A stretch of DNA of 64,000 bases from an uncultured Candidatus Saccharibacteria bacterium (GCA_964475655.1 CAYYXE010000001.1:5435-69434); one strand, 5' to 3'. Numbered from the stretch's first letter, positions 4,973-48,041 are shown. Notes: a model not told the origin generated them from the letters alone. Program-made: numbers and translations.

Positions 4973-4980
4973 AGTGCCCT

Positions 4981-8647: not shown

Positions 8648-8658
8648 GATCCCACCAC

Positions 8659-8730: not shown

Positions 8731-8734
8731 CAAC

Positions 8735-10879: not shown

Positions 10880-10880
10880 G

Positions 10881-20567: not shown

Positions 20568-20975
20568 ATGAAAATACGAACAATAACTACTGAAGCAGAA
20601 ATGAGTCTTGAACAACTAACTGCTGTTTTAAGACATGCTGGATTGTTGGTTAGAAATCAAGTAATCCACGAAATCAGCAGAGATTTAAATGGAATCCGAT
20701 TCACAATTACTGAGCAGGTTGATCAAGAATTTACAACATCCGGCCGAGTATTTACTGAAAAAGAAGAAAAAATTATTTGCAGTAAATCACTCGAGGATTT
20801 AAATCTTAGTGTGAGAGCGTTTAATTGCCTAAAAGCTTCCAAGATAAATTCTTTAAGACAACTTCTGGATTATTCAGAGGAAGACTTAACAAAATTTCGA
20901 AATTTTGGAATGAAATCTATTTCAGAAATTAAAGAAGTTCTTACCAAGCTAGGGTTAAGCCTCAATTCTAATTGA
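20568..20975 (+). CDS. stand-alone RNA polymerase alpha C-terminal-domain (alphaCTD)-like protein with unknown 70-aa N-domain
   Basis: C-terminal LEDLNLSVRAFNCLKASKINSLRQLLDYSEEDLTKFRNFGMKSISEIKEVLTKLGLSL matches alphaCTD (ELTVRSANCLK...GKKSLTEIK...GLSL); AT-rich. Confidence 0.7.
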   Translation: MKIRTITTEAEMSLEQLTAVLRHAGLLVRNQVIHEISRDLNGIRFTITEQVDQEFTTSGRVFTEKEEKIICSKSLEDLNLSVRAFNCLKASKINSLRQLLDYSEEDLTKFRNFGMKSISEIKEVLTKLGLSLNSN

Positions 20976-23926: not shown

Positions 23927-24676
23927 TTACTCGGTAGATTGGGCGCGCTCAAGTGCAATGTCGCCAAACTGGTCGCTTTGTTCAGCTTGCACCAGTCCGC
24001 GTCTGACAAGCTCTAGCATACCAAGAAACGACACGATCGTATAGACTTTTTGGGCCTTGTCGTCTCCGTCAGGTGCGTGGACGCGCAGGCTGTTGAATGA
24101 CCCACTTGTCATCTTATTTATTCTTTCTATAAGAGTATCGATGACCTCTCCGATCGATATGGTCACCGTCACGCGAGCCTCAGGCTTCACAGGCGTAGGT
24201 GGCGGGATGCGTCCGATGATCGATGCGATAAGGTGCGGAAGTTGCTCTACGGTAAGTGAGGGATCTGGTGCAAAGATGACCCCAGTCTTTTGTGGCTTCC
24301 CTTCAAACGACACTTTCTTGCCGTATTGCTTGATGAGGTCGTTGGATACATGCGAGATGATCTGATAGAGCGCGAGGCGGCGTTCGAGGTCGGTGATGGA
24401 CTCGGATTCTTCGGCAGTGAGCTCGAGATTTGGCAACAATGAGCGCGCCTTTATCAGGATAAGTGTCGCTGCAACTGCAAGGAAATTTGCAACCAGATCC
24501 GGGTGCATGCCCTTGCTTTGTATAAAAGAAATGAAGTCATCAGTGACCGACGCGAGCGAGACGTCGTTGACAAAGAGCTTTCGCTTCTCGATAAGCTCAA
24601 GCAGTACCTCGATTGGTCCTTCGAAGGCGTCGTGTTTGACTTGAAATTGCGCTGCAAGATCGCTCTGGGTTTCCAT
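23927..24676 (-). CDS. scpA: segregation and condensation protein A
   Basis: FEGPIEVLLELIEKRKL motif of ScpA kleisin. Confidence 0.85.
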   Translation of the reverse strand: METQSDLAAQFQVKHDAFEGPIEVLLELIEKRKLFVNDVSLASVTDDFISFIQSKGMHPDLVANFLAVAATLILIKARSLLPNLELTAEESESITDLERRLALYQIISHVSNDLIKQYGKKVSFEGKPQKTGVIFAPDPSLTVEQLPHLIASIIGRIPPPTPVKPEARVTVTISIGEVIDTLIERINKMTSGSFNSLRVHAPDGDDKAQKVYTIVSFLGMLELVRRGLVQAEQSDQFGDIALERAQSTE

Positions 24677-24711
24677 TGGGATAAGTATAGCAAAAAGCCC
24701 GTCCGAAGGGC

Positions 24712-24954
24712 CTAGTGTGCGAGTTTGATCTTGAGATCTTTTTCAAATGCAGTGTCGATAATCCGTACTTTGTCTTCTAGATTAGCAATGCGGTTCTCAT
24801 GATTGTTAGAAAGTTTATTGAGTTCTTCGTGTACTCGGTCAAACTCGTTTTTGGTAGATTGAGCCAAGGTATCAACTGATACCGAGAGGTCTGCGATCAT
24901 GCGTGCAAGATCAGCATTAGTCACCTCTGTAGTTGTAGGCTTTTGGTCGCTCAT
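24712..24954 (-). CDS. small coiled-coil hypothetical protein (80 aa)
   Basis: Only the 3' third of the 186-aa ORF looks protein-like; start at MSDQKPTT. Confidence 0.4.
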   Translation of the reverse strand: MSDQKPTTTEVTNADLARMIADLSVSVDTLAQSTKNEFDRVHEELNKLSNNHENRIANLEDKVRIIDTAFEKDLKIKLAH

Positions 24955-25447
24955 GAAGCTATAGTATACCCGCGTCATACTGTCGCGCAACTGTATATAA
25001 AAGATGGAGCCCCTACATTGGTATGAGGGGCTTGGCGATGTGTACAGAGTACACGGGACGATGTTGAATTGTGATAAAGGTAAAGAAATGAAAGAACAAG
25101 GATAAGAAATAAGGGCAAAATGAATCGCGAATGATGGAGAAAGAGGTAGAAGGTATAGACAAATATTTGTATATACCACCCGCCTGCAAAAGCTATGCGT
25201 TAGCATTGCGGGCAGGGAGAAAAGAAAAGCTTCGCTGGCGTCGGATGTATAGAGATACTCCGAATGGTTCATTTATGAAGCACGCCGGTTTGAGACCTAA
25301 ATGGTGGTGTGTACAAAGTGATATAGAAATATCGAACCCTGTACCCTCAAAATAGTGTGTTCAATGGCCCTTGGCAAAGAACTAATGGAAGCAGAGAAAC
25401 TACCTACTTCCATCTTAGAGACGAAATACTTCCCTTTTTATTACATA

Positions 25448-25480
25448 TTGACAAATTCAAATTTGAAAGTACTATATAAT
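25448..25480 (+). promoter_or_regulatory. promoter TTGACA-16-TACTAT(ATAAT) for small membrane gene
   Basis: -35 25448-25453; extended TATATAAT at 25473-25480. Confidence 0.4.
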
Positions 25481-25493
25481 AAAACTTAGATTT

Positions 25494-25799
25494 ATGTATA
25501 TGTTCTTTATGTTCAGATTTGTATACAGAGTCATTATTCCAATCATCATTACATGTGTAACCGCAATTGAATTTTTCGATAAAAGAGCTACTACAGATAT
25601 TACAAAATATCCTGTTTTGGGTGAAAAAACTTTTGTATTATTTGTATTTATGACATTTTGGTCATGGATTCAAATGTCTATACTCAGTGATGAGGGTCAA
25701 GACGATAGAGTAAGAGCTCGCAATATAATAAAACTCATTTATTTTGTGGGCCTTATCGCAATGATTGTTGTTTGGAAAAATAATTTGTATATGTACTAA
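25494..25799 (+). CDS. hypothetical small membrane protein (AT-rich)
   Basis: 101 aa, 3 predicted TM segments. Confidence 0.45.
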   Translation: MYMFFMFRFVYRVIIPIIITCVTAIEFFDKRATTDITKYPVLGEKTFVLFVFMTFWSWIQMSILSDEGQDDRVRARNIIKLIYFVGLIAMIVVWKNNLYMY

Positions 25800-25800
25800 A

Positions 25801-25830
25801 ATCCCCCGTTTTGGACGGAGGATTTTTTTA
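25801..25830 (+). terminator. rho-independent terminator (TCCCCCGT...ACGGAGGA + T7)
   Basis: 8-bp stem (1 mismatch) + TTTTTTT; overlaps aspS stop on the other strand. Confidence 0.65.
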
Positions 25831-27264
25831 TTTCTTCTCTACTTTTTTGAGCACGATGTTGAGCTCGTCGAGTTGTTTTTGGGAGACTTCGCTTGGTGCG
25901 TGCATCATAGGGTCCTTCCCTTCTCCAGTTTTCGGGAATGCCATGACTTCGCGGATGTTGGGTTCGTCAAGGAGAAGCATCATGAGGCGGTCAAATCCCC
26001 ATGCGATGCCTCCGTGTGGAGGGGTGCCGGTCTTAAACGCCGTGAGCATGTGAGAGAAGTTTGCCTCAATGTCTTCCATACTATGACCGAGGATTTCAAA
26101 TACCTTTGCGAGTGCGTCATAGGTGTGATTGCGGATTGATCCCCCGCCGATCTCGTAGCCGTTGAGCACGATGTCGTACTGAGTCGTGAGGATAGATCCG
26201 ATATCTTTTTTGTTCATGAGGTTGTCCATATGCTCAGGGATGGGGCGAGAAAACGGGTTGTGTGTGTAGGTCCATGAACCAGTTGCATCAGGATTGTCAG
26301 ACTTACTGGTCTCTTCAAAAAATGGGAAATCTACTACCCAACAAAATGCGAGCGTGTTGGGATCGTTTTTGTCTTGACGAATGTCTGGTCGGTCAGTACC
26401 GTACTTGCTCATGGCATCGGCATATGAAATGCGTGGGAATGGGATTTGCTGGATCTTCTTTTCTGGGAAAAACTTCTGCACGATGTCGATCAGGAGCTTT
26501 TCGTTGACGTTCATCACATCATCACGGTCGACAAAGGAGAGTTCCATATCGAGCTGGGTGAACTCTGGCTGGCGATCACCGCGTCCGTCTTCGTCGCGCA
26601 TGCACTTGGCAAATTGGAAGTATCGTTCCACACCTGCGCTCATCAGGAGCTGCTTGTACTGCTGCGGAGACTGCGGGAGTGCATAAAACGTGCCTGGGTA
26701 GAGACGTGCAGGGACGATGTAGTCACGCGCACCTTCCGGAGTAGACTTGGTAAGGATGGGCGTTTCTACTTCGATAAATTTCTCTGCATGGAGTGCATTG
26801 CGCAAATGCTGTACTACGGTGTCGCGCATGCGCATGTTGCGTTGCATGCGAGCACTTCTGAGGTCAAGGTAGCGGTGTGCAAGGCGTACTTCTTCGCTCA
26901 CTTCTCGTGTGTCGACGTTGATCTCAAATGGAAGCGGCTCGGCGTAGTTGAGGATTTCGATACCAGTCACTTCAAGCTCGATGTCGCCGTTTTGTTTGTC
27001 AGCTTGCACATTGCGTTCGGGGCGCTTGTTCACGATGCCTTCTACTCGCACTACGGTCTCAGGACGCGCAGTCTTGGCTATCTCGATCACCTCAGGACGA
27101 TTGGGCAGCACGACGCCTTGAATGTAGCCAGTCATATCTCGGAAGTCAAAAAAGACCATTTTGCCCTGGTCGCGGCGGACGTCGATCCATCCTTTGATCA
27201 CTACTGTCTCCCCTGCTTTCGCTCCCAAATCGCTAATATATGTGCGCTCCATAGTGCTTTCCAT
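25828..27264 (-). CDS. aspS: aspartate--tRNA ligase, compact bacterial-type (no GAD insertion domain evident)
   Basis: Class II motifs FYALPQSPQQYKQLLM, FRDEDGRGDRQPEFTQLDME, GGIAWGFDRL; start at MESTMERTY (ORF upstream extension looks non-coding). Confidence 0.85.
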   Translation of the reverse strand: MESTMERTYISDLGAKAGETVVIKGWIDVRRDQGKMVFFDFRDMTGYIQGVVLPNRPEVIEIAKTARPETVVRVEGIVNKRPERNVQADKQNGDIELEVTGIEILNYAEPLPFEINVDTREVSEEVRLAHRYLDLRSARMQRNMRMRDTVVQHLRNALHAEKFIEVETPILTKSTPEGARDYIVPARLYPGTFYALPQSPQQYKQLLMSAGVERYFQFAKCMRDEDGRGDRQPEFTQLDMELSFVDRDDVMNVNEKLLIDIVQKFFPEKKIQQIPFPRISYADAMSKYGTDRPDIRQDKNDPNTLAFCWVVDFPFFEETSKSDNPDATGSWTYTHNPFSRPIPEHMDNLMNKKDIGSILTTQYDIVLNGYEIGGGSIRNHTYDALAKVFEILGHSMEDIEANFSHMLTAFKTGTPPHGGIAWGFDRLMMLLLDEPNIREVMAFPKTGEGKDPMMHAPSEVSQKQLDELNIVLKKVEKK

Positions 27265-27299
27265 AGTTTTTGCATTGTGCCATAAAATGAGGAATAAAA

Positions 27300-27327
27300 A
27301 AAGCCCCGCGGGATATCGGGGCCTAAC
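27300..27327 (-). terminator. hairpin GCCCCG...CGGGGC + U7 on minus strand, 35 nt upstream of aspS start
   Basis: 6-bp GC stem followed (minus strand) by TTTTTTT. Confidence 0.55.
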
Positions 27328-27356
27328 TACTGATGAATCAGTGGTTTGTAATGTTT

Positions 27357-27599
27357 TTACGCAATTTCTATTCGCCAAAATACCAAAATGCTTTTTACAA
27401 TAGCAATAAATTGTTTTGATGCACATTCTCTTTTTTCTTTGAAATGTGCAAAGTAAGATTCTTTTGCTATCGAAAGATTAGTTATATTTTTGGGGATCGA
27501 AACGTGCTCTCCTTCTGTTTGTGCTTTTTGGAGATCACGTATGGGGACACCGGTGGCGAGGTTGATGTCAGAGAGATTAAGATTTTGGAGTATGTTCAT
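27357..27599 (-). CDS. candidate small protein (80 aa) downstream of M16 peptidase; coding status uncertain
   Basis: ORF MNILQNLNLSDINLATGVPIRDLQKAQTE... bounded by two terminator hairpins; no obvious SD. Confidence 0.25.
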   Translation of the reverse strand: MNILQNLNLSDINLATGVPIRDLQKAQTEGEHVSIPKNITNLSIAKESYFAHFKEKRECASKQFIAIVKSILVFWRIEIA

Positions 27600-27651
27600 A
27601 AAGAGTTGGTTTTTTAAAAATATTACCACCCGTACATTTTTTGTCAAAAAA

Positions 27652-27671
27652 CCCGGGACTGTGTCCCGGGG
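27652..27671 (-). terminator. terminator hairpin CCCGGGAC/GTCCCGGG + U-tract immediately after M16 peptidase stop
   Basis: 8-bp perfect stem then TTTTTTG on minus strand. Confidence 0.65.
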
Positions 27672-27676
27672 ATACT

Positions 27677-28954
27677 TTAAAAATACTTTTCTGAACATTT
27701 TTTACCATTAACGATAATATGACAGTTATCGAGAGTAATATACTTTTTTAAAACTTCATGTATTTCTTCTGGACTTACGTTTTCCATAAAGTTATACCAA
27801 TCAGTGAAATCTTCTATCAAAGGGGTATCCTCAGGATATAAGTCAGAAAATTCATTTACAAAGTTTCTTGATGTTTGAATCTCTCGTATATCTGAAAACC
27901 ATTCCGTAACAAGTTTATCACGGTATTCTTTTTGAGATATTCCCTCTGAAAGAAGTTCTGTATAGCATTCAAAGATCGAATCAAGCAACAGGTCTGTTTT
28001 TTCGGGAGCAGTACCTGCAGTAGTCCCAGTGTACATCAAATGGTTAAGTGCAATTCTGGGAGAACCTAGACCATATACCAAGCCACGTTCATTCCGAAGT
28101 TTTTTGTAAAACCTTGAAGATAAACCGTCATGTGCATACTCTAGAGCAAATCTAAGAATAATACTCTCTCTCGAAGCTAAAACTGGTCCATCAAACCCAA
28201 CTACTACTCTTGTTTGCTCAAGATTCTGTTCAAGAAAAATTCTTGAACCCGAAGCAATCCGCTTGGGAGGGTCTGGGAGAAATTTTTTAATACCACACAA
28301 GAAATTGATATCTGAAAATGTTTTTTTGACATCGTCTACAGTACATCCACCAGCTATAACAAGTAGCATATTTTCAACAGTACAATGAGATCTAAAAAAA
28401 TTTTCAACGTTGATTGGCAACATAGCTACTATTGATTCTTTTGTACCCAAATTTGAATTACTCCAATTGGTACCATTTCCCCAAATAGACGCAAAAGAGA
28501 GACTTGAAATATACTCAGATTTCGAAAGATTTTGAAGTAACTCAGAAGTTATCACACCGATTTCTTTTTGATGTGACTGGGGAGTTATATATAATCCTGA
28601 CAAAGCTTCAGAGTAGTATTCTTTCATATTACTCATATGTTCAGGTATCGCCACTTCACATTCAATAGACATTTGGTCACGACCTGTGCGTGCGTTTGAG
28701 TGTCCACCGATTGAATCTATTATTCCTGCAAATGCTTCCTTTGTAGGATATTTGTTTGATCCAGATACAATAACGTGTTCTGTAAAGTGCGCCAGGCCAC
28801 TATCTCCATCATTAAATACAGATCCTGCACGCATGAGAATATTGGCAAAAATAGGACCGGAGGATCTTTGGATAAAAACAACCTTCAATCCATTTTCTAA
28901 TACGAGCTCGTGCTTCGTAACACCAAAATCATCGAGTGAATAGTTTCTTTTCAT
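27677..28954 (-). CDS. M16-family zinc peptidase (insulinase/pitrilysin-like)
   Basis: Inverted zinc motif HFTEH with downstream Glu; 425 aa; AT-rich. Confidence 0.75.
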   Translation of the reverse strand: MKRNYSLDDFGVTKHELVLENGLKVVFIQRSSGPIFANILMRAGSVFNDGDSGLAHFTEHVIVSGSNKYPTKEAFAGIIDSIGGHSNARTGRDQMSIECEVAIPEHMSNMKEYYSEALSGLYITPQSHQKEIGVITSELLQNLSKSEYISSLSFASIWGNGTNWSNSNLGTKESIVAMLPINVENFFRSHCTVENMLLVIAGGCTVDDVKKTFSDINFLCGIKKFLPDPPKRIASGSRIFLEQNLEQTRVVVGFDGPVLASRESIILRFALEYAHDGLSSRFYKKLRNERGLVYGLGSPRIALNHLMYTGTTAGTAPEKTDLLLDSIFECYTELLSEGISQKEYRDKLVTEWFSDIREIQTSRNFVNEFSDLYPEDTPLIEDFTDWYNFMENVSPEEIHEVLKKYITLDNCHIIVNGKKCSEKYF

Positions 28955-29022
28955 TATTTAAGTTTTTAACGTTTTACAAAATTGTTTATTAAAATAATAA
29001 CATAAATTTATTAAAAAGCAAA

Positions 29023-29601
29023 TTAAGATTTTTGGGCTATGAAATGAAACACATGCCAGTGTTTCGGGGTACCTACAGCAGTAGTTCCGTCTTTTTCTTC
29101 TTCTACAAATTCAATAAGTTCGAGATCTGACAGCATGTTTTGAGCTTCTTCTTTGGTTTGAAATGCAAGAGCTGCATCCGGTGTATTCCACTGGTCTCGA
29201 TCCCCAAATAATTGTCCAACAAATATCCCTTCTCGCTTTAGAGACACAACACAATTTTTCATAAATGCAGCAAAGCCGTCTTTTCCATAAAACGGAAGTG
29301 CGTATTGAGCATTAATAAGGTCATACGTATTGGGTACAAGTGTAAAATCTTGAAATGGTACATTTGCTAATGTAAATTTTGCAGAAGTAATACACATCGC
29401 AAATTCTTTGGATTGTGGTGAGCTATCGACTGCCGTCACCTGGTCAAAGCCTGCTTCCAAAAGATACTTTGATTCGATTAGTGTTCCGGCGCCAAGATCG
29501 AGAGCAGAGTTTCTATCTGGACAAATTTCAACAGCACGAACAAGTTGTTCTCGAGGCTTACGAGTTGCGTGTACTTTTGCGTATGTTTCCCAGTTTGCCA
29601 T
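29023..29601 (-). CDS. small class I SAM-dependent methyltransferase (TehB-like size/architecture)
   Basis: Motif I LDLGAGTL; acidic motif II VDSS; 192 aa. Confidence 0.7.
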   Translation of the reverse strand: MANWETYAKVHATRKPREQLVRAVEICPDRNSALDLGAGTLIESKYLLEAGFDQVTAVDSSPQSKEFAMCITSAKFTLANVPFQDFTLVPNTYDLINAQYALPFYGKDGFAAFMKNCVVSLKREGIFVGQLFGDRDQWNTPDAALAFQTKEEAQNMLSDLELIEFVEEEKDGTTAVGTPKHWHVFHFIAQKS

Positions 29602-29605
29602 ATGT

Positions 29606-31408
29606 TTACGCCATTAAGATCTGATTCTTAATCAATTTCTGATATTCTTTATTTTTCTTTTCAAGCTCAGCATGGGTTCCCTGTCCGACGATCTTACCTT
29701 CTGATACGACAAAGATAATATCAGCATCCATTACGGTGGAAAGTCGATGTGCAATGATAATCGTGGTGCGACCAGCTGCTGATCGGTTGATCGCATCATG
29801 GATGAGCTTCTCATTGATCGAGTCGAGTGCTGAGGTTGCCTCGTCAAAGATGAGGATCTTGGGGTCTTTGATAAGTGCTCGTGCGATGCCGATGCGTTGA
29901 CGTTCTCCACCTGAGACTTTGATACCACCTTCACCTATCACAGTGTCGAGTCCGTGATCTTTGAGCTTGACGACAAAGTCAGTAAGCGATGCATCCTCGA
30001 CTGCTTTTTGAAGTTTCTCTTCACTTACTTCTACCCCCGAAGGAATTCCAAACAATATGTTGTCTCTGATACTTCGGTCAAAGAGTTCAATCTTTTGTTC
30101 GACGTTGCCGATCTGAGAGCGAAGCCAGTGAAGGTCAAGCTCCTTGAGTGGCTCGCCATCAATCAAGATCTCACCTTCTGTGGCGTCATAATAGCGACGC
30201 ATAAGGTTTACGATAGTACTCTTGCCAGATCCAGATACACCGACAAATCCCACTTTTGCTCCGGGAGGGATTTTGAAACTTACCTCTGCAATCGTATGCT
30301 CAAGTTCATTTCCATCTGATTCTTCTTCATTTTCAATTTGCTGCGCTGATTGCCGGTATGGGTATGCGAAGCTTACCTTCTTGAATTCAATTTCACCTTT
30401 GAGCTCAGAGATAGTCTTGCCACCGATGTTGGGATTTATATCTGGTTCTATATCAAGAAGATCAAAATACTTTTTAATTTCAACTGTTTGGAACATTAGT
30501 CGACGCTGTGTATTCATAATATTATTGATATTGTCAAAAATTGATCCTGTCCATGCGTAAAATGTTACAAACATACCGACTGAGTGATATCCCTTAAAAA
30601 TAAAATAAATACCGACACCTAATGTTAGATATCTTCCGAGAAGAAGAATAATTTTGGAGCCATAGTATTCTTTTATATATGTGAGCCATGTTTTAATTGT
30701 AAAATCAGTAACTTTTTCGTACGCTATTTCGAAATCGCTCACTGTTTTATCTTCCTGTGCTTCTGCAATAACAAGCGTTGAATTTCTAAAAAGTTCTGAC
30801 TGCAACTTTGATTGCGATTGGTTCTTTTTACGCACTTCGTCCACTCGAGGGTAGTATCGAATATTTCGGTTGTATGCAATAAGTATGTGGAGCAATACAA
30901 ATATAAATGCTACTAATCCAGCTTTCCAATCAAATATAAAAAGAATGACAAATGTTACCAAAATCTGAATACCTGTTTGGAGCAGATCATAAATAAACAT
31001 ATTTACTGTATTGATCAGTGAATTCTGTCCTTTATTAACTATGGTCTGCTTCACACCTGAGTGTTCGTTGATGTGTTGACCTATCGAGAATTGAAACATT
31101 CTCTTGAGTGAGATCACAGAGAGTGCCTTATCGATATTTGCGTCGAGTTTTTTGATGTCAATGTATTCTTTGATATACCAGACAACCTGCTGCTGCAAAA
31201 TTGCAATGCCAAATGATGTGGCTAAAAAGATAATAGTGAGCCGAGCATCTCCTTTAATGATTGCATCAACACCCTTTCCAAATAAATATGGAGTAAATGT
31301 TGCAAATACCTGAACAATAGCAATTAAAGCTGCTGTAATAATGAAATATTTCCAAAAAGGTTTAAAAAATTGTATTGTTCTGTGCAAAAAACTTTTCTTT
31401 TTATTCAT
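29606..31408 (-). CDS. ABC exporter, fused permease + ATPase (type I exporter, MsbA/MdlB-like)
   Basis: 6-TM N-domain; Walker A GVSGSGKST, signature VSGGERQR, Walker B ILIFDEATSALD, H-loop IIAHRL. Confidence 0.85.
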   Translation of the reverse strand: MNKKKSFLHRTIQFFKPFWKYFIITAALIAIVQVFATFTPYLFGKGVDAIIKGDARLTIIFLATSFGIAILQQQVVWYIKEYIDIKKLDANIDKALSVISLKRMFQFSIGQHINEHSGVKQTIVNKGQNSLINTVNMFIYDLLQTGIQILVTFVILFIFDWKAGLVAFIFVLLHILIAYNRNIRYYPRVDEVRKKNQSQSKLQSELFRNSTLVIAEAQEDKTVSDFEIAYEKVTDFTIKTWLTYIKEYYGSKIILLLGRYLTLGVGIYFIFKGYHSVGMFVTFYAWTGSIFDNINNIMNTQRRLMFQTVEIKKYFDLLDIEPDINPNIGGKTISELKGEIEFKKVSFAYPYRQSAQQIENEEESDGNELEHTIAEVSFKIPPGAKVGFVGVSGSGKSTIVNLMRRYYDATEGEILIDGEPLKELDLHWLRSQIGNVEQKIELFDRSIRDNILFGIPSGVEVSEEKLQKAVEDASLTDFVVKLKDHGLDTVIGEGGIKVSGGERQRIGIARALIKDPKILIFDEATSALDSINEKLIHDAINRSAAGRTTIIIAHRLSTVMDADIIFVVSEGKIVGQGTHAELEKKNKEYQKLIKNQILMA

Positions 31409-31411
31409 GTT

Positions 31412-32380
31412 TTATTCTGTAAGCCCTACCACCTCATACACATCCGTCAGCTTCTTCATTGCGATCTCATTCGCCTTCATCGCGCCCTGAAGCAGTATTT
31501 CTTGTACAAGCTTGGGATCATCTTCATACTTTTTGCGGCGTTCGCGCATGGGGGTGACGAAGGAGATGATGTCCGCTATGAGCATCTTTTTGGCATCGCC
31601 ATAGCCGAGGCCTTGTCGATACTGCGATTTGAGTTCGTCAGATGAGTTGAAGAGTTTGTGGATCTGGTAGAGCACCATGTCGTCGGGGTTCTTTTCTTCA
31701 TCTTTGCCTCGAGAGTCAGTCGGGATACTCATGACAGCCTTTGTGATTTCCTCGTCAGTACCAAAGAGTGGAATCGTGTTGCTGTAACTTTTGCTCATCT
31801 TTTGTCCATCGGTACCGGGGACTGTCGCAACTTCTTCCATAATGAGTTCGTTTGGAAGTTTGAAAAGCTCAGCGTATTGGAAGTTGAACTTCCCTGCGAT
31901 GTCGCGCGTGTATTCGATGTGCTGCTTTTGGTCTTTGCCGACCGGTACGACGTCTGCATCGTAGAGCAAAATATCGGCAGACATGAGCACTGGGTAGTTG
32001 AAGAGTCCCATGCCTGGCTCGATGTCTTTGGCGACAGCGTCTTTGTAGGCATGCGCTCGCATCATAAATGGTACCGTGACGAGCGTATCAAATATCCAGG
32101 TGAGCTGCGTGTGTGCAGGCACGGCGGATTGCTTAAACAATGTCACCTTGGCAAGATCAAGGCCGATGCCGAGATAGTCGAGGACGAGATCATACGAGAG
32201 CTTCTTCATTTCCTCGGCGTCTTGGATGGTATTGAGCGCATGGAGATCTGCAAGAAAGATAAATGTTTCGTATTCATCCTGGAGATCGACAAATTGCTTC
32301 ATTGCGCCAAAGTAATTGCCGATATGCGGACGACCGGTTGGTTTGACACCTGAAACAAGGCGCTTTTTTGTGGAAGACAT
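31412..32380 (-). CDS. trpS: tryptophan--tRNA ligase
   Basis: HIGH-like PTGRPHIGNY and KMSKS motifs. Confidence 0.9.
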   Translation of the reverse strand: MSSTKKRLVSGVKPTGRPHIGNYFGAMKQFVDLQDEYETFIFLADLHALNTIQDAEEMKKLSYDLVLDYLGIGLDLAKVTLFKQSAVPAHTQLTWIFDTLVTVPFMMRAHAYKDAVAKDIEPGMGLFNYPVLMSADILLYDADVVPVGKDQKQHIEYTRDIAGKFNFQYAELFKLPNELIMEEVATVPGTDGQKMSKSYSNTIPLFGTDEEITKAVMSIPTDSRGKDEEKNPDDMVLYQIHKLFNSSDELKSQYRQGLGYGDAKKMLIADIISFVTPMRERRKKYEDDPKLVQEILLQGAMKANEIAMKKLTDVYEVVGLTE

Positions 32381-32464
32381 GTGGATATAGTATCAAAAAT
32401 AAGGCTCAAATGCCACGTTTCTGTGCATTTCGTCCCGCGTGTGCCGGGTGCTACAATCAATCCT

Positions 32465-33847
32465 ATGAATAAGCCTCAAGGCCTCGCCAACCTCCGCGTC
32501 CCACCTCACTCGCTCGAAAGCGAGCAGGCAGTGCTCGGTGCGCTCATGCTCCGCCCCGCTGCAATCCACGAGATCGTCGACCTCCTTACGCCAGATATGT
32601 TTTATGCCAAGAAGCATTCGATTATCTTTAAGACGATCCTTGAGCTTTCGATGAAAAACGAACCGATCGATGTCCTCTCGCTTGCAAACTCCCTCAAAGA
32701 AAAGAAAGACCTCGCGGGCATCGGCGGCAACACGTATCTCAATGAGCTCATGAGCAATGTCCCTTCGACGGTCAACATCCGCCACTACGCCGATATCGTC
32801 TACAAGAAATTCATTTTGCGAAGCTTGATCGATGCATCTGAGTCTATCGCCACGCTTTCGTACGAAGAAAACGAGCTTCCTGCAGCCGAGATCCTCGATG
32901 CTGCCGAGAAAAGCATCTTTCGTATTTCTTCGACTATGAATACCAAAAATGCCTTTGTATCGATCAAGCAGTCGCTCATGGACACCGTCGAGCAGATCGA
33001 GCACCTTCGCGAACACAAAGATGAGATCCGCGGCGTACCAACGGGCTTCCCTGATCTCGACAACCTCCTTGCCGGCCTGCAAAAAAGCGACCTTATCATC
33101 CTTGCGGCGCGACCAAGTATGGGTAAGACGACGTTTGCGCTCGATATTGTGCGCAATGTTGCGCTCTCAGGCACACCTGTGGGCATCTTTTCACTTGAAA
33201 TGTCATCGCAGCAGCTCGTGCAGCGCATGCTCTCTGCAGAAAGTCGTGTCGATGCATGGGCGATCCGTACCGGACACGGCCTTACCAACGCTCACTTCAC
33301 CACACTCCAAGAAGCAGCAAGTAGACTGCAAAAGGCGCCGATCTATATCGATGACCAAGCTGGCAACTCCATTGTCAAAATGCGCTCTGTCGCACGCCGC
33401 CTCAAAGCCGAACACGGTCTCGGACTCATCGTCGTCGACTACCTCCAACTCATGACGACTAGCAAAAACTACGACAACATGGTCAACCAAGTCACCGAAA
33501 TCTCTCGCTCGCTCAAGCAGCTTGCCCGCGAGCTCGACGTGCCCGTGCTTGCACTCTCCCAGCTCTCTCGTGCCGTCGAAAGCCGTGGCGGCAAACCTCG
33601 CCTTTCCGACCTTCGTGACTCAGGATCTATCGAGCAAGACGCTGATCTCGTGATGTTTATCCATCGCGAAGATAGATTTAAGGATGAAAAGGACTTCATC
33701 ACCGACATCCTGATCGAAAAGCACCGCAATGGTGCAGTCGGATCGGTGCAGCTTCTTTTTGATGCCAAGACGACGTCATTTATCTCCATCGACAAGGCAC
33801 ACGCGCAAGGATTGGTCAGCAAGCCCACAACATTTGACGACTTTTAA
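32465..33847 (+). CDS. dnaB: replicative DNA helicase DnaB
   Basis: N-terminal DnaB domain, Walker A ARPSMGKTTFAL, RecA-fold motifs; start at MNKPQGL. Confidence 0.9.
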   Translation: MNKPQGLANLRVPPHSLESEQAVLGALMLRPAAIHEIVDLLTPDMFYAKKHSIIFKTILELSMKNEPIDVLSLANSLKEKKDLAGIGGNTYLNELMSNVPSTVNIRHYADIVYKKFILRSLIDASESIATLSYEENELPAAEILDAAEKSIFRISSTMNTKNAFVSIKQSLMDTVEQIEHLREHKDEIRGVPTGFPDLDNLLAGLQKSDLIILAARPSMGKTTFALDIVRNVALSGTPVGIFSLEMSSQQLVQRMLSAESRVDAWAIRTGHGLTNAHFTTLQEAASRLQKAPIYIDDQAGNSIVKMRSVARRLKAEHGLGLIVVDYLQLMTTSKNYDNMVNQVTEISRSLKQLARELDVPVLALSQLSRAVESRGGKPRLSDLRDSGSIEQDADLVMFIHREDRFKDEKDFITDILIEKHRNGAVGSVQLLFDAKTTSFISIDKAHAQGLVSKPTTFDDF

Positions 33848-34440
33848 TGGAACGAAATCTTGAACAACTCGCAAACCTCTTTCTCAAATTCCCGGGCATC
33901 GGGAGACGGCAGGCCATGCGCTTTGCGTACTTTATATTGACCCAGCCGGAAAGCTACGTGGCAAGCCTCGCACGCGAGCTCACCAGTGCCCGCAGTCAGG
34001 CACACACCTGTACCAAGTGTCAGCGGATCTTTGAAGGAAATGCCGGACTCTGTGAGATCTGTAGCAATCCATCGCGTGACCAATCCCAGCTTCTCATAGT
34101 GGAAAAAAGTCAGGACATCGATAGCTTCGGCAAGACCGACTACCACGGGCTCTTCTTTGTACTCGGCGGGCTCATCCCGATCGTCCAAAAGAACGTCCTC
34201 GCCGGCACCAACATCGCCCTTCTCAAGGAGCGCGTATCCAAGGAAAGCACCAGTCCCTATGAGGTCATCCTCGCCTTCCCCATCACCCCCAATGGCGAAC
34301 ACACCGATACCGTCGTCCGCGAAATGCTCGCCGTTTACCCGATCTCTATCTCAAGTCTCGGTCGCGGCCTCTCTGCAGGAGCAGAGCTTGAATACGCCGA
34401 TGCAGAGAGTTTGAATGCGTCGCTTAAGAAGAGAGAATAA
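33847..34440 (+). CDS. recR: recombination protein RecR
   Basis: HhH (KFPGIGRRQAMR), C4 zinc finger CTKCQ...CEIC, Toprim. Confidence 0.9.
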   Translation: MERNLEQLANLFLKFPGIGRRQAMRFAYFILTQPESYVASLARELTSARSQAHTCTKCQRIFEGNAGLCEICSNPSRDQSQLLIVEKSQDIDSFGKTDYHGLFFVLGGLIPIVQKNVLAGTNIALLKERVSKESTSPYEVILAFPITPNGEHTDTVVREMLAVYPISISSLGRGLSAGAELEYADAESLNASLKKRE

Positions 34441-34441
34441 A

Positions 34442-34473
34442 AAAATCCCTTCGTTACTGAAGGGATTTTTTTA
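34442..34473. terminator. bidirectional terminator (AATCCCTT...AAGGGATT flanked by A/T runs)
   Basis: 8-bp stem between convergent recR and rplU. Confidence 0.7.
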
Positions 34474-34839
34474 TTATATAGAAAGGATCTTTACCTTAAG
34501 GTATGGTTGGCGGTGGCCATTCTTCTTTTGATAGCGGCTTTTTTGCTTGTATTTCAGCACGATGACCTTGGGTGAGCGGCCGACTACGGTGACTTCGCCA
34601 GTTACAGATGCGCCAGCAATGTATGGAGTACCGATCACGGTATCTGCACCGCTGTCAGTGAGGAGTACCTTGTCAAAGGTAACAGAGTCGCCCTTTTTGA
34701 GGCCTTCGATCTTTTCGATCTGGATGGTCTCGCCGACTGTTACCTGGTACTGCTTGCCGCCAGTTGCAATCACTGCAAATCCTTCAGCTTTTGGAGCCTT
34801 GGGAGCTGTCTTTTTGGTTGGTGTGGTCGCGGTTGCCAT
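34474..34839 (-). CDS. rplU: 50S ribosomal protein L21
   Basis: FAVIATGGKQYQV motif; Ala/Lys-rich N-extension. Confidence 0.85.
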   Translation of the reverse strand: MATATTPTKKTAPKAPKAEGFAVIATGGKQYQVTVGETIQIEKIEGLKKGDSVTFDKVLLTDSGADTVIGTPYIAGASVTGEVTVVGRSPKVIVLKYKQKSRYQKKNGHRQPYLKVKILSI

Positions 34840-34947
34840 ATAGGTATTTGAGGCCCTTATTATACTTATTTCCCGCTTGATTGCAAGTCATACCCGCGAA
34901 GTGCTGCTATAGATCAGGGCGAAGAGGGATATGGTATAATAATTTCC

Positions 34948-35856
34948 ATGATTTCACGCTACAGCGCGCATGGGCTTACCTGGATCGACCTCGTATCCCC
35001 TACTGCCGACGAGACTGCGCACATTGCCGAAGAATTTGAGATCCCAAGTCTGGTCAGCCAAGAGCTCATCGACCACACCTTGCGCTCCAAGGTAGACATG
35101 TACCCTAGTTTCCTTTATCTCGTACTCCACTTTCCGCTTATCGACGCAGAAGACAAGGAACAGGAAGTCGACTTCATCGTCGGAGAAAAGTTTATGATCA
35201 CGGTGCGCTATGAGCAGATGCGCGCGATCGACAGCTTTGCAAAGATCTTTGAACGGCACACGCTGGGCACCCAGATGGCGATGACGGCACACGGGACGTT
35301 CTTGTTTATGCAGCTCATTAAGCTCCTCTACCGTTCACTCCTGCATCAGCTCGAGACCATGACCGACGAGCTCAAGCACATCGAGTCACGTATCTTTACC
35401 AACAACCAAGTCTCGATCGTCCGCGATATCTCTCGGGCATCGCGCAAGCTGCTTGACTTCAAGCAGTCCACGAGATTTCATGCAGAAGTCCTCGCCTCTT
35501 ACGAATCTGCAAGCAAGCGACTCTTTGGAGATGAGTACGTCTACTATGGCGAAGTCGTCAACGGCGAATACAAAAAGGTTGCCTCCATTCTCGAAAGTCA
35601 CCGTGACGTAGTCGCCGAGCTCCAGCGTACCAACGACTCACTCCTCTCTACGAAGTCCAACGAAATCATGAAAAACTTCACCATCATGACCTTTGTCATG
35701 CTCCCACTCACGCTCATCACGGGCATCTTTGGGATGAACACCACAAGCGATCTTATCTTTATCAAGTCGATCGATAGCTTCTTCTTTGTGATTGGCGTCA
35801 TGGGCATTACTGGTCTTGTGCTCTTCTTATTCTTCAAGCTTCGTCGCTGGATCTAG
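34948..35856 (+). CDS. corA: CorA-family Mg2+/Co2+ transporter
   Basis: Two C-terminal TM with GMN motif (GIFGMNTTS). Confidence 0.8.
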   Translation: MISRYSAHGLTWIDLVSPTADETAHIAEEFEIPSLVSQELIDHTLRSKVDMYPSFLYLVLHFPLIDAEDKEQEVDFIVGEKFMITVRYEQMRAIDSFAKIFERHTLGTQMAMTAHGTFLFMQLIKLLYRSLLHQLETMTDELKHIESRIFTNNQVSIVRDISRASRKLLDFKQSTRFHAEVLASYESASKRLFGDEYVYYGEVVNGEYKKVASILESHRDVVAELQRTNDSLLSTKSNEIMKNFTIMTFVMLPLTLITGIFGMNTTSDLIFIKSIDSFFFVIGVMGITGLVLFLFFKLRRWI

Positions 35857-35859
35857 TCT

Positions 35860-37248
35860 ATGTCTCTCAAGCTCTACAACACCAAATCTCGCAGTATTGA
35901 GGAATTCGTCCCGCTCAATGGCAACACCGTCACCATGTATGCCTGTGGTCCGACCGTCTACGACTACACGCACATCGGCCATATGCGCAAATACATTGGA
36001 GATGATATCTTGCGCCGTACACTGACTCTGCTCGGATATGAGGTGAAGCATGTGATGAATATCACTGATGTAGGGCACCTTTCAGATGATGCAGATAACG
36101 GAGATGACAAGCTCGACAAAAAGGCGCGCGCAGAAGGCAAGACTGTCTGGGATATTGCGGCGTTTTATACTGACTACTTCCATACGACGATGCGTGAAGT
36201 AAACGTGCTTTCCCCGACTATTGAATCGAAGGCTACCGAACACGTAGAGCAGATGAAATCGCTTGTGGAGAAGCTGCTCGAAAAGGGCTTCGCGTATGAG
36301 ACCCCACATGCAATCTACTTTGATGTCTCCAAGGACCCACACTACGGTGTGCTCTCAGGACAAAAGATTGCGGAGAAAGAAGTAGCGGTGCGTGACGATG
36401 TAGTAGTAGATCCTGACAAAAAGCACCCAGCAGACTTCTCTCTGTGGTTTAAGCGGGTTGGGCACTTTGCAGATCATGCAATGCATTGGCCAAATCCCAA
36501 AGGAGTAGAACAAGGTGACGGATTTCCTGGATGGCATATCGAGTGCTCGGCGATGGCGATGCACTATCTCGGTGAGACGATCGACATCCATACGGGCGGT
36601 ATCGACCATATCCCTGTGCACCACGAAAACGAAATTGCACAGAGTGAATGCGCGACAGGGCACGACTTTGTGAAGTACTGGGTACACCACGACTTCCTTA
36701 CGGTAGATGGTGTAAAGATGTCCAAAAGTCTCGGAAACTTCTACAACATCGATGACATCATCGCGCGAGGTATCAATCCGCTCGCCACTCGCCTCCTCTT
36801 CATGCAGACAAGCTATCGCAAGCCACTCAATTTCTCTTGGGAAGCACTTGAGACTTCAAACATGCAGCTCAAAAAGCTCTATAAATTTGCATCGCACCAA
36901 AATGATATTGGCGGTATAAGCTCCATGCACAAGGAGCAATTTATTGAGGCACTGAGTGATGATCTTAATACGGCACGCGCTATTGCTGTCGTATGGGATA
37001 CAGTCAATTCTTTTGCACTTCCTGACGAGGTTAAGTGGGCAACACTCCTCTATTTCGACCAAATACTCGGTCTCAAACTCGACACCGTGCCAAAGTTTGC
37101 TATTACCGATGAAGCAAAAAGTCTTGTGCAAAAGCGTGATGAAGCCAAAGCCTCCAAAGATTTTGCGACTTCAGATCAGATCCGCAATGAACTTATTGCA
37201 CTTGGATACGACGTGCTTGATACCGCAGAAGGTACGAGGCTTCAGTAA
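35860..37248 (+). CDS. cysS: cysteine--tRNA ligase
   Basis: HIGH (HIGHMRKY), KMSKS, zinc-binding Cys residues. Confidence 0.9.
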   Translation: MSLKLYNTKSRSIEEFVPLNGNTVTMYACGPTVYDYTHIGHMRKYIGDDILRRTLTLLGYEVKHVMNITDVGHLSDDADNGDDKLDKKARAEGKTVWDIAAFYTDYFHTTMREVNVLSPTIESKATEHVEQMKSLVEKLLEKGFAYETPHAIYFDVSKDPHYGVLSGQKIAEKEVAVRDDVVVDPDKKHPADFSLWFKRVGHFADHAMHWPNPKGVEQGDGFPGWHIECSAMAMHYLGETIDIHTGGIDHIPVHHENEIAQSECATGHDFVKYWVHHDFLTVDGVKMSKSLGNFYNIDDIIARGINPLATRLLFMQTSYRKPLNFSWEALETSNMQLKKLYKFASHQNDIGGISSMHKEQFIEALSDDLNTARAIAVVWDTVNSFALPDEVKWATLLYFDQILGLKLDTVPKFAITDEAKSLVQKRDEAKASKDFATSDQIRNELIALGYDVLDTAEGTRLQ

Positions 37249-37279
37249 AAATTGAATTTGAACCTGCTATACTTGAGCG

Positions 37280-37693
37280 GTGAAAACACTAACTCCTCGA
37301 GAGCAGTTCATGATGTTCTCAAATCTCTTTCTCATACTTCCTGTTATATCTGCCGCACAGTATCATGAGTGGTTATACTGTTTCTTTGCGAGTGGATTAT
37401 TTATATTCTCGCCACTTTTTCACTGGTATAGAATCAGTGATACTTCATCAATATATTTTCGTGTATTCAAAAAAGCTGATTGGATATTTGCGATTGGCGC
37501 ATTTCTGTATATGTACTATTACATCTATGCCTTTATTTCTGGAAGACAACAACTCGCTTTATTTATACTTCTCACGCTTGTTGTATGGTTCTTCTGGTAT
37601 GGATGGAGACGTGGTGAATATGACACATGGCACCCATGGTTTCATATCGTTGCCCCGATTGTATCATCAGTTATTCTTATCGTTGCGAATTAG
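37280..37693 (+). CDS. hypothetical membrane protein (AT-rich, Trp/Tyr/Phe-rich)
   Basis: 137 aa, 4 TM. Confidence 0.45.
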   Translation: MKTLTPREQFMMFSNLFLILPVISAAQYHEWLYCFFASGLFIFSPLFHWYRISDTSSIYFRVFKKADWIFAIGAFLYMYYYIYAFISGRQQLALFILLTLVVWFFWYGWRRGEYDTWHPWFHIVAPIVSSVILIVAN

Positions 37694-37706
37694 ACTAATA
37701 CCCTTA

Positions 37707-40467: not shown

Positions 40468-41388
40468 TTATATCAAAAACAGCGCACCGGTAATCATAAT
40501 ACACAGCGAGATACCTTTATGGATTAAGGATCTCTTTGAAATGTCTTCTGTTAGTATGCGCGGGAAAAATATAGTGCATACAATGCCTAGCAAAAATACG
40601 ATAAGGGGTTGCGCGACTTCAATGACAAGTACCAACACAATTGGCACAGATAAGATAGCGTAATTTACAAGCAGGTTTCCGATAATCGTCGTAGACTCTG
40701 AAGCAATATTCACTAGGAGTATCTTTTTGCCTGATGTCCGCACCATGCTGAAAAATGCTTCTCGATACTTCTTTATCAACACAAGTACAACTATCCCTGC
40801 TATACCCAATCCCAAATGTTCCCAAAATGTTGCCGCCCAAAATCCGCTATCTCTTCCTACAAATTTAAAAAGTACTATCCATATCGCAATAAAGAGCGAT
40901 GCAAACAGCATGTACAATACTGACCTCCATTTTACGTGGTACCGGATAGATACTGCGGATTTTTCTGTACGGATAGAAAGCACAACACCACCCAATACAA
41001 CAATGGCGCCCCCGATCATTTGTATATACGTAATAGTTTCTCCTAAGAAAAAATAGCCCAGAATATAGCCGAACAATGGCAGAGTCAAAAACCACGGAAT
41101 AACACTCGATACATCATCGACGGCAAGGGCCTTGAAGTAGAACATAAGCCATACCAAGTTACAAAACCCAGCAACAAGAAGGATAAGAATGTCGCGGGCA
41201 CTGAGCGCAAAATTTTTTCCACCAACTAGATAGATAACACCTGCAGCAACCAGTGCAAAAAGACTCGAAAACAACACAAGTGCTCCAATCGAACGGCTTA
41301 CATTTTTATTTTTTTCAACCAAATAATTGTCCGTAATATTTACTAGGGAATAAAGAAATACGGCAATAAAGGTTAGGAGTATCCACAT
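40468..41388 (-). CDS. EamA/DMT-superfamily transporter (10 TM)
   Basis: Two EamA-like 5-TM repeats. Confidence 0.7.
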   Translation of the reverse strand: MWILLTFIAVFLYSLVNITDNYLVEKNKNVSRSIGALVLFSSLFALVAAGVIYLVGGKNFALSARDILILLVAGFCNLVWLMFYFKALAVDDVSSVIPWFLTLPLFGYILGYFFLGETITYIQMIGGAIVVLGGVVLSIRTEKSAVSIRYHVKWRSVLYMLFASLFIAIWIVLFKFVGRDSGFWAATFWEHLGLGIAGIVVLVLIKKYREAFFSMVRTSGKKILLVNIASESTTIIGNLLVNYAILSVPIVLVLVIEVAQPLIVFLLGIVCTIFFPRILTEDISKRSLIHKGISLCIMITGALFLI

Positions 41389-47795: not shown

Positions 47796-48041
47796 ATGAA
47801 ATGGGTTTATAAAGACAAGATAAATTATTATAATAATAAGCAATCCAAGAGCTACCCCAAGAACAATATTAATTGCCCTATATACTTTTTGATTTCTAGT
47901 GAAAATACCAATAAGAGAAATTAGTATAAAAACTCCAGACCAAAAAACTTCAGCAAAATTAGCAGTCCCTGTACTATGAAAAGAATCCATTAGAAGAAAT
48001 ATAGGGTATCCAAGACCTATAATTGGTAAAATATATCTCAT
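47787..48041 (-). CDS. hypothetical small membrane protein (AT-rich)
   Basis: 84 aa, 3 TM. Confidence 0.4.
   Translation of the reverse strand: MRYILPIIGLGYPIFLLMDSFHSTGTANFAEVFWSGVFILISLIGIFTRNQKVYRAINIVLGVALGLLIIIIIYLVFINPFHLF

Follow-up and report, generated by a model that had tools for sequence, protein, structure and literature searches.

The yeast a-factor pathway comprises the ABCB-type ATP-binding cassette (ABC) exporter Ste6, the methyltransferase Ste14 and the M16 peptidases Axl1 and Ste23, and is, to our knowledge, the only described pathway for making and exporting a peptide in which proteins of these three kinds come together. In Escherichia coli, the S-adenosylmethionine (SAM) methyltransferase TehB acts on tellurite and selenite. 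Among bacterial loci, the subtilosin cluster pairs an M16B peptidase with an ABC exporter, and a 2025 review that lists the defining features of M16 enzymes describes the physiological substrates of prokaryotic M16B members as mostly unknown (PMC12731061). Here we analysed a 64-kb stretch (the window; 64,000 nucleotides, GCA_964475655.1, CAYYXE010000001.1:5435-69434) from an uncultured Candidatus Saccharibacteria bacterium, in which genes for an ABC half-transporter (29606-31408), a small class I SAM methyltransferase (MTase; 29023-29601) and an M16 zinc peptidase (27677-28954) lie between trpS (31412-32380) and aspS (25828-27252). All genes of this trpS-aspS interval, which we call the slot, are on the minus strand.

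A preliminary description of this sequence had taken the three genes for a horizontally acquired peptide maturation and export module, or alternatively for a detoxification and export module, in a reduced genome. The assumption about the genome was sound, the host being a member of Candidatus Saccharibacteria, and of the two functional proposals the second is mildly favoured by our results. The window's sequence is identical to that of a metagenomic scaffold. In our reading, the interval is what presently fills a trpS-aspS slot that is conserved yet plastic in one Saccharibacteria lineage, and its three accessory functions would be independent; we give this reading about an even chance of being correct. 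Each protein is a new member of a known superfamily, with the M16 peptidase representing a new, narrow M16B clade.

Occupancy and recombination at the trpS-aspS site

Ten further lineages share the neighbourhood recR-dnaB / trpS ... aspS-scpA-scpB-mraY-ftsW-murG, and in all ten, each retrieved through its M16 or MTase gene, the interval between trpS and aspS is occupied. The window's order of exporter, MTase and M16 gene is found in three of them (L010, L026 and L027) and the order ABC_A-M16-MTase-ABC_B in a fourth (L028); these four retain the full trio, down to 43% identity of the M16 protein. Five lineages (L008, L014, L017, L020 and L022) carry an exporter, other genes and the M16 gene, and one (L021) carries MTase and M16 genes with no exporter. 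Compared with the window, flanking proteins are 71-89% identical, type-A exporters (ABC_A, the window's type) 73-79%, MTases 47-70% and M16 proteins 39-58%. The trpS stop and the exporter start are separated by 1-3 nt in all six type-A loci, and the MTase follows the exporter within 1-6 nt.

The block had been described as wedged between a once-adjacent trpS and aspS, a view overturned by the occupied site in all 11 syntenic relatives and by the 1-3 nt trpS/ABC junction. Since the same site is held in lineages with flanks 71-89% identical, and since no repeats, tRNA genes or integrases occur at the slot borders, the block is an old resident of the site and not a fresh insertion. We consider it extremely unlikely that the interval is a recent foreign island, brought by a low-GC donor from outside Saccharibacteria between formerly adjacent synthetase genes. 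Such an origin would fit the strongest compositional outlier of the window and the many transferred regions reported in Patescibacteria genomes (PMC12455944), but the trpS/ABC junction leaves no room for an insertion scar, close M16 homologues come essentially all from Candidatus Saccharibacteria metagenome-assembled genomes (MAGs), and the MTase family is native to Patescibacteria. Insertion scars were also sought directly at the borders, and none was found.

The AT-richness noted in the preliminary description is real: at a G+C content (GC) of 0.374, the interval is the lowest-GC 4.1 kb of the window and the minimum over all same-size segments (mean 0.472, s.d. 0.032), the next lowest non-overlapping segment being at 0.414. 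At third codon positions (GC3), the exporter, MTase and M16 genes have values of 0.366, 0.269 and 0.258, against 0.586 ± 0.057 for the 39 other window genes of at least 150 aa (z-scores of -3.8, -5.5 and -5.7, respectively). Low GC nevertheless marks a class of genes and not this block alone, since about 12 further low-GC open reading frames (ORFs) occur in the window, with GC3 of 0.13-0.40 as opposed to ~0.59 for housekeeping genes. In every lineage, moreover, GC3 of the slot genes lies 0.1-0.3 below that of the flanks, and it stays nearly constant at 0.25-0.41 while host core GC3 spans 0.3-0.65, so that the offset, present regardless of host GC, points to a gene class or pool rather than to a fresh insertion. 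Among the observations named in the preliminary description as refuting its reading, the same genes at this locus in relatives were seen, although their composition was not host-like. Protein divergence rate was rejected as the cause of low GC3, because recR, scpB and mraY are equally diverged (61-77%) but GC-rich.

The further low-GC3 ORFs stand singly between conserved genes, and gene composition in the window is bimodal. They lie at 63-503, 1620-1988, 4608-4889, 16886-17278, 20568-20975, 25494-25799, 37280-37693, 40468-41388, 42888-43358, 44759-45121, 47787-48041, 58251-60038 and 61689-61946. Those identified include an M3 oligoendopeptidase F (PepF, 58251-60038), an EamA transporter (40468-41388) and a protein consisting only of an RNA polymerase alpha C-terminal domain (20568-20975), and several small ones have no family match.

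Within the population of the window, the slot exists in two forms. The second haplotype (H2) came to light in searches with the exact TrpS protein of the window and with a variant of an 80-aa ORF situated between the M16 gene and aspS. In the window's haplotype (H1), the exchangeable segment holds MTase-A and M16 and covers 27675-29606 (minus strand), as delimited by alignment with L111, which matches the window at 99.25% over 35586-29607 and at 95.1% over 27674-24669, with non-homologous DNA between. There, 1.3 kb encoding MTase-B and a 193-aa ClpP-family protease replaces the 1.9 kb of MTase-A and M16, with exact limits from the ABC stop codon to a shared terminator. At least 8 assemblies, independent of one another and drawn from different projects, carry H2. 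MTase-B belongs to the same family as MTase-A but is only 33% identical, and both H2 genes are preceded by a promoter-like site. That housekeeping ClpP had moved into the slot was considered and rejected (65 bits for the H2 protease vs a cut-off of 228).

The H2 segment is 99.7-100% identical in DNA among strains whose ABC alleles are ~76% identical in protein. At least three such ABC alleles coexist in the window's population, along with three TrpS alleles (100, 96 and 77% amino-acid identity), and aspS is ~9% diverged between strains; dnaB in H2 strains is 97-100% identical in nucleotides. The trpS and ABC alleles of this single population are as divergent as those of different species. In a comparison with L002/L003, noted for window positions 24000-27500 and 33500-34500, zero-difference blocks at 27500-33500 and 34500-38900 alternate with ~9% blocks at aspS, in the recR region and at 25000-25500. 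This patchy strain divergence points to frequent homologous recombination between strains, and the slot is a recombination hot spot. What stands of the proposed horizontal acquisition is exchange among Saccharibacteria, in agreement with the finding that most gene transfer in Patescibacteria stays within the group (PMC12455944).

Across lineages, the layout stays the same while its contents alternate: exporters come from two families, MTases from three subtypes and peptidases from two families, either M16B or a ClpP paralog. In L019, a type-B MTase precedes an M16 of the window's clade. Other cassettes of the slot comprise a GRDP-like protein that ends in a Cys-rich tail, a pair of ~363 and ~57 aa, and a Pol-beta-type nucleotidyltransferase. 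The first, a protein of ~205 aa absent from the window, lies between exporter and M16 in L014 (5820-6449, plus strand) and L022 (9280-9888, plus strand) and combines a GRDP-like/UCP032817-like N-domain (FWHAHILDTRRYH...HHYPYFG) with a C-terminal Cys/Gly/Ser-rich tail (e.g. ...CSAGGGNCVSSCAQQGNCVSSC) that could be a metal-binding region or resemble the core of a ribosomally produced, post-translationally modified peptide (RiPP). The pair (~363 aa plus an acidic protein of ~57-61 aa; 49% and 43% identical between the two loci) occurs at L014:6578-7872 and L026:10087-11398, upstream of M16 in one lineage and downstream in the other, which indicates that gene pairs move within the slot. The nucleotidyltransferase, of the Pol-beta superfamily, lies between trpS and exporter in L008 (4849-5481, plus strand) and has a weak MntA-antitoxin-like match (28.5 bits vs a cut-off of 60). 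L014 is also unusual in its aspS (9709-11232), only 42% identical to that of the window, while its trpS, dnaB, scpA and ftsW are 82-85% identical; its M16 is the most divergent (39%), and a distant lineage appears to have supplied a replacement for the whole M16-aspS end, the housekeeping synthetase included.

The slot may be compared with strain-variable loci such as those for pneumococcal capsule or bacteriocins, whose flanks hitch-hike during cassette switching. Non-homologous cassettes, sharp boundaries at conserved anchors and unusually divergent housekeeping neighbours in one population (here trpS and aspS) are common to both. The content of the slot differs, being an exporter, a small methyltransferase and a chambered peptidase, and so does the host, an ultra-small epibiont with a reduced genome.

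These patterns bear on a further alternative, which we hold to be unlikely: that the three are unrelated, housekeeping-like genes with no more than a neighbourhood in common. The exporter would be a flippase for lipids or drugs transcribed together with trpS, the MTase a methyltransferase of general occurrence in Patescibacteria, and the M16 protein a nutritional oligopeptidase that returns peptides to the amino-acid pool; low GC3 would reflect weak codon selection on lowly expressed genes, and cassette turnover would be neutral churn at a site prone to recombination. The steady GC3 of slot genes across hosts agrees with this, as do the low GC of a second cytoplasmic oligopeptidase in the window (PepF), the Patescibacteria-wide distribution of the MTase family amid unrelated neighbours, the separate transcription units predicted from promoter and terminator sites, and the occurrence of M16 genes without an exporter, either outside the slot (L018, L023 and L024) or within it (L021). 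True housekeeping genes would, however, not be expected to show dimorphism within one population or non-homologous replacement, the M16 clade does not extend beyond a narrow lineage, and the equally diverged recR, scpB and mraY retain host-like GC3.

Predicted transcription units and proteins of the slot

Gene positions in the preliminary description proved exact, and Pfam bore out its assignments (ABC exporter, class I methyltransferase, M16 peptidase). Its motifs were located (HFTEH from residue 56 of the M16 protein, GVSGSGKST, VSGGERQR and LDLGAGTL), as were its gaps (3 nt from the trpS stop to the ABC ATG, 4 nt from ABC to MTase) and two terminators, each a hairpin with a T-run. From these gaps we share its view that trpS, ABC and MTase probably form one transcription unit. 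The unit would begin with trpS (PF00579, E = 5e-59), upstream of which (32381-32420) a -10-like TACTAT lies just 6 nt before the ATG and no Shine-Dalgarno sequence is present, an arrangement that suggests a leaderless trpS mRNA. M16, in turn, is predicted to be separately promoted and terminated. The MTase-M16 gap of 68 nt holds a promoter-like site (28994-29022, minus strand; TTTGCT, 17 nt, TG-extended TATTAT), found by alignment with L010, L026 and L027, where it reads TTGACT-17-TATAAT/TATAGT; in the window its -35 is weaker, its -10 is extended, and the consensus scanner scores it under threshold. An intrinsic terminator follows the M16 gene (27646-27670, minus strand; stem 27670-27652, 8 bp with 7 G-C pairs, then a T-run), and this is the terminator common to both haplotypes that marks the right-hand swap boundary.

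The 424-nt spacer between M16 and aspS holds a further small unit on the minus strand, with a promoter-like TTGACA-16-TAATAT (27620-27647; 10/12 consensus matches, TG upstream), an orphan 80-codon ORF (27357-27599) that has no family match and could be coding or an RNA, and a second intrinsic terminator that closes the unit (27294-27324; stem 27324-27301, 8 bp with 6 G-C pairs, T-run). The encoded 80-aa product would have one Cys, no transmembrane segment and no signal peptide, and no homologue outside the species was found in 5.8 billion proteins. Its sole PDB match is a TetR regulator (E = 0.74); a helix-turn-helix regulator was considered on visual likeness only and dropped, with no Pfam match at E<=10. 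The spacer was likewise searched for a T-box, riboswitch or leader RNA: Rfam gave none at gathering thresholds and only chance-level matches at E<=1, and the spacer transcript folds better than shuffled sequences (z = -3.7), its two terminator hairpins included. The ~50 nt upstream of aspS (27253-27300) are the only intergenic DNA conserved in relatives (75-88%); aspS itself (474 aa, minus strand) is the right-hand anchor of the slot.

The exporter is a type-A half-transporter of 600 aa with the type-IV exporter fold (ABC_membrane, 1.3e-14; ABC_tran, 1.2e-31), assigned from Pfam, NCBIfam, motifs and comparison with the PDB. Its N-terminal membrane domain has about six transmembrane segments, the first at about residue 21, and its C-terminal ATPase carries canonical motifs (Walker A GVSGSGKST, signature VSGGERQR, Walker B ILIFDE, H-loop AHR), from which a competent homodimer is expected. 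The closest solved half-transporters are Sav1866, ABCB9/TAPL, ABCB10 and MsbA. Like these, it combines a six-helix membrane domain and a C-terminal ATPase in one 600-aa chain, and it aligns over its full length with Sav1866 (222 bits). Unlike them, it stays far below every NCBIfam equivalog cut-off (e.g. 320 vs 602 bits for MsbA), is translationally coupled to trpS, is represented by at least three alleles ~76% identical in one population, and carries a conserved acidic insertion of ~20 aa (QQIENEEESDGNELEH; residues ~352-372) directly before Walker A in the ATPase domain, common to all type-A exporters of the slot. As the preliminary description had stated, a C39 domain is absent: the protein has no Peptidase_C39 (PF03412) match, and its alignment with the NCBIfam bacteriocin_ABC profile starts only at position 161, so that the N-terminal C39 domain of peptidase-containing ABC transporters (PCATs) is lacking.

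The type-A MTase (192 aa), placed in the cytoplasm and assigned from Pfam, AlphaFold2 (AF2) and Foldseek, matches the Methyltransf_11/25/PK families (3e-7 to 2.5e-6). Its AF2 model (predicted local distance difference test, pLDDT, 92) aligns over the full length of both proteins with E. coli TehB (2xvm and 4dq0; TM-score 0.80-0.81 by query length, TMq, and 0.78-0.79 by target length, TMt), as against ~0.64 for peptide N-terminal methyltransferases. The modelled fold is hence of the TehB type, with small-molecule enzymes as its nearest neighbours. TehB, at ~195 aa, is the best full-length structural match and also similar in size, and as TehB is paired with the membrane transporter TehA, so the window's MTase lies immediately downstream of a transporter gene. 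Identity to TehB is only 18-21%, however, the partner is an ABC exporter instead of TehA (no TehA-like gene was found at the locus), and the MTase family has its own invariant C-terminal KHWH-x-F motif, besides LDLGAGT (G-x-G-x-G) and the acidic D59. The window's MTase stays under the Pfam TehB cut-off (18.6 vs 20.4 bits) and reaches 15.4-28.3 bits against NCBIfam TehB equivalogs with cut-offs of 218-303, while type-B MTases of the slot exceed the Pfam cut-off (31.5 and 27.8 bits).

The family (~191 aa) has hundreds of members across Patescibacteria phyla, mostly amid unrelated neighbours, and more than 513 metagenomic loci hold a member with such neighbours. A fixed MTase-ABC or MTase-M16 module across Patescibacteria was considered and rejected, as only L038, which is Saccharibacteria-like, and L042 showed one among ~70 metagenomic MTase loci; of these two cases, one match is within chance expectation. 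L042 is a 245-kb contig from Patescibacteria whose gene neighbourhood is unrelated and lacks trpS-aspS synteny. Directly upstream of a same-family MTase (4646-6567) it carries an M16B of another kind, 24% identical and not part of the clade, an adjacency compatible with chance (1 in ~70).

The M16 gene, the only one in the window, encodes 425 aa (Peptidase_M16, 1.1e-10; M16_C, 4.5e-19) with no signal peptide and no transmembrane segment. In the clade alignment, the zinc motif H56-F-T-E59-H60 is invariant in 38 of 38 members, as is E138, 82 residues past H56, and E131 is nearly so, giving an E-x6-E pattern; a distal zinc-ligand Glu some 76-82 residues past the first His (H46...E126 in Bacillus halodurans BH2405) defines M16B (PMC12731061). 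R287 and Y294, invariant within LRNERGLVY, are a candidate for the R/Y pair. The AF2 model (pLDDT 94.8) matches bacterial M16B structures (3amj, 3hdi, 5hxk and 7v4y) with Foldseek TM-scores of 0.82-0.87. We predict a cytoplasmic M16B enzyme with an intact catalytic set. Its clade is sharply bounded, with ~38 proteins at 39-82% identity before a drop to ~24%; among 1.84 billion representatives, a profile search scored full-length clade members at 506-682 bits and everything else at 292 bits or less. A search of the available literature found no paper linking Saccharibacteria with M16 peptidases.

With the bacterial M16B 'peptidasome' subunits BH2405/BHP (3hdi), TTHA1264/1265 and SPH2681/2682, the protein shares a two-domain subunit of ~47 kDa, the fold, and HXXEH with a distal Glu; its C-terminal domain offers the candidate R/Y pair. 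The catalytic motif and this candidate pair are in one gene, as the corresponding features are in the homodimeric BH2405, and these enzymes likewise have no assigned physiological substrate (PMC12731061). The window's enzyme differs from all of these in being 15-19% identical, in belonging to its own fast-evolving, narrow Saccharibacteria clade, and in occupying a strain-variable slot where it is allelic with a ClpP-family protease. Outside the trpS-aspS slot, a member of the clade (47% identical) was seen in L012/L018 (GCA_964473175.1, CAYYNN010000003.1), surrounded by two serine recombinases, ParB, restriction-modification genes and an ATP:guanido phosphotransferase, with an MTase-family fragment 7 kb away; this context suggests that the M16 gene also travels on mobile DNA.

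Elsewhere in the window, two ORFs are likely over-called: 24712-25272 (minus strand, 186 aa), where the source assembly calls an 88-aa gene, and 8551-9339 (minus strand, 262 aa), which overlaps tRNA-Ile on the opposite strand (8659-8731, plus strand), the sole tRNA gene of the window.

Possible roles in peptide export, in defence or as independent functions

In our judgement it is decidedly unlikely that the block is a module for maturing and exporting a peptide of the RiPP, bacteriocin or pheromone-like sort. In such a module, the M16B or ClpP-like protease would trim a ribosomal peptide, the MTase would methylate it and the ABC protein would export it, and the allelic cassettes would stand for different types of product, as they do at loci for pherotypes or bacteriocins. 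Several observations do argue for it. The trio recurs and survives rearrangement (ABC_A-M16-MTase-ABC_B in L028), analogues take the place of every part (ABC A/B, three MTase subtypes, M16/ClpP-like), the population dimorphism and deeply divergent exporter alleles resemble diversifying selection, M16 evolves fast, and two relatives have a protein with a Cys/Gly/Ser-rich tail between exporter and M16. The pairing of M16B with an ABC exporter in the subtilosin sbo-alb cluster (PMC12731061) was the basis of the preliminary proposal, and the window does encode the two side by side. The sbo-alb cluster, however, encodes an active/inactive M16B pair (AlbE/AlbF), an exporter of separate ATPase and permease (AlbC/AlbD) and the radical SAM enzyme AlbA, whereas the window has a single M16B gene, separately transcribed by our prediction, a fused half-transporter, no radical SAM enzyme and no precursor gene.

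Peptide maturation failed the tests that could be applied to it, and none of them showed that the block makes a peptide natural product. The short-ORF search for leader/core architecture in the slot and flanks, which the preliminary description had called for, yielded no small ORF shared between loci. The 80-aa ORF was rejected as a conserved precursor, being a species-level orphan with one Cys and no leader/core or Cys-rich layout; its unit, at 99-100% identity throughout the strains of H1 and H2, does not change when the two putative maturation enzymes are exchanged. No class-defining RiPP enzyme turned up when the slot genes were scanned with Pfam, and precomputed Pfam assignments for all genes within ±10 kb include no radical SAM, YcaO or LanM/LanB-type enzyme. 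An ABC exporter, such as a RiPP cluster would dedicate to its product, is present, but it is generic and lacks C39. M16, MTase-B and the ClpP-like gene have promoter-like sites of their own, and the MTase fold is nearest to small-molecule enzymes, its family being found mostly with no peptidase or exporter nearby.

The a-factor pathway offers no closer parallel, since Ste14 is an integral-membrane isoprenylcysteine methyltransferase and the precursor is prenylated at a CAAX motif, neither of which has a counterpart in the window. The high PDB score of the window's exporter to Ste6 reflects only the summed scores of Ste6's two halves.

Swappable low-GC cassettes between core genes are also what an anti-phage defence hot spot would look like. 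The exporter ATPase and the MTase have weak PADLOC matches to MADS components, and the M16 gene of L018 lies amid restriction-modification genes and resolvases. Yet the PADLOC 2.0 matches are partial, covering a generic ATPase and Rossmann cores, and neither M16 nor the small ORF has one; the fold of the MTase is that of a small-molecule enzyme and includes no DNA-target recognition domain, the ABC protein is an exporter that crosses the membrane about six times, and no nuclease or sensor gene is present. We therefore regard a defence system at this site as very unlikely. By the tests applied, the locus fails to qualify as a RiPP cluster, a PCAT, a set of TehB equivalogs, a recent island or a catalogued defence system.

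The slot parts have been at the site since before the sampled lineages diverged, yet have been exchanged as cassettes among Saccharibacteria. Under the reading of a plastic slot with independent functions, the exporter would be made from the trpS transcript, starting 1-3 nt past the trpS stop, and would drive ATP-dependent efflux of exogenous or unwanted compounds; the TehB-like enzyme would methylate a small molecule; and the M16B subunit would pair with itself into a closed chamber, like BH2405, and degrade cytoplasmic oligopeptides. Such activities would suit an amino-acid-auxotrophic epibiont that faces peptides and toxins of its host and of competitors. This reading fits the lack of a conserved precursor or RiPP enzyme, the MTase fold, the separate promoters, the M16 genes without ABC (L018, L021, L023 and L024) and the constancy of the 80-aa ORF while both enzymes swap. 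Under it, the block would not be a gene cluster that makes a ribosomal peptide.

Several points weigh against this reading. The functions assigned to all three proteins derive from family and fold, and the MTase falls short of both the Pfam TehB and the TehB equivalog cut-offs. Because relatives were retrieved via M16 or MTase, empty slots were undetectable. Low GC3 may reflect either weak selection and low expression or continual import of low-GC genes, and in a tree-congruence test trpS and aspS distances barely correlated (rho -0.04 to 0.31), which is consistent with rampant recombination. In-place replacement by analogues, including that of M16 by another self-compartmentalising protease, and the adjacency of MTase and peptidase in 8 of 16 M16-clade contexts may point to functional coupling, something that independent functions would not lead one to predict. 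M16 diverges about three times faster than its neighbours, a rate to be expected of an enzyme that follows a varying substrate, and this, together with the population polymorphism at the slot, pulls towards a coupled module. We think it improbable, all the same, that the locus is a Saccharibacteria-specific modular system of exporter, small methyltransferase and self-compartmentalising peptidase, whose parts function holds together while diversifying selection swaps them between alleles, and which serves the epibiont's dealings with host bacteria or competitors. Such a system could act by either of two routes: a processed, methylated peptide signal whose precursor is encoded elsewhere or varies between lineages, or strain-specific neutralisation of host antimicrobial peptides or toxins.

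Implications for accessory gene content in Saccharibacteria

Saccharibacteria, ultra-small bacteria that live as epibionts, have almost no biosynthetic capacity, and the greater part of their accessory genes is uncharacterised. The arrangement described here is new in two respects: an exporter coupled to an aminoacyl-tRNA synthetase gene is followed, in a hot spot, by an allelic cassette of small methyltransferase and chambered peptidase, and the housekeeping flanks of that hot spot show species-level divergence inside one population. It also demonstrates that a compositional 'island' can be an old, site-stable slot reshuffled within a phylum, which calls for caution in GC-based island calling for genomes of the candidate phyla radiation (CPR). 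If the three activities are coupled, they would constitute a previously undescribed CPR system for peptide processing and export or for resistance; if they are not, this is an ordinary accessory region, correctly annotated. A strain-dimorphic set (MTase plus M16 vs MTase plus ClpP-like protease, with a polymorphic exporter) could be the reason why strains differ in the hosts they use, the toxins they tolerate or their use of peptides, and since H1 and H2 coexist in sampled populations, their association with host or niche is testable on metagenomes.

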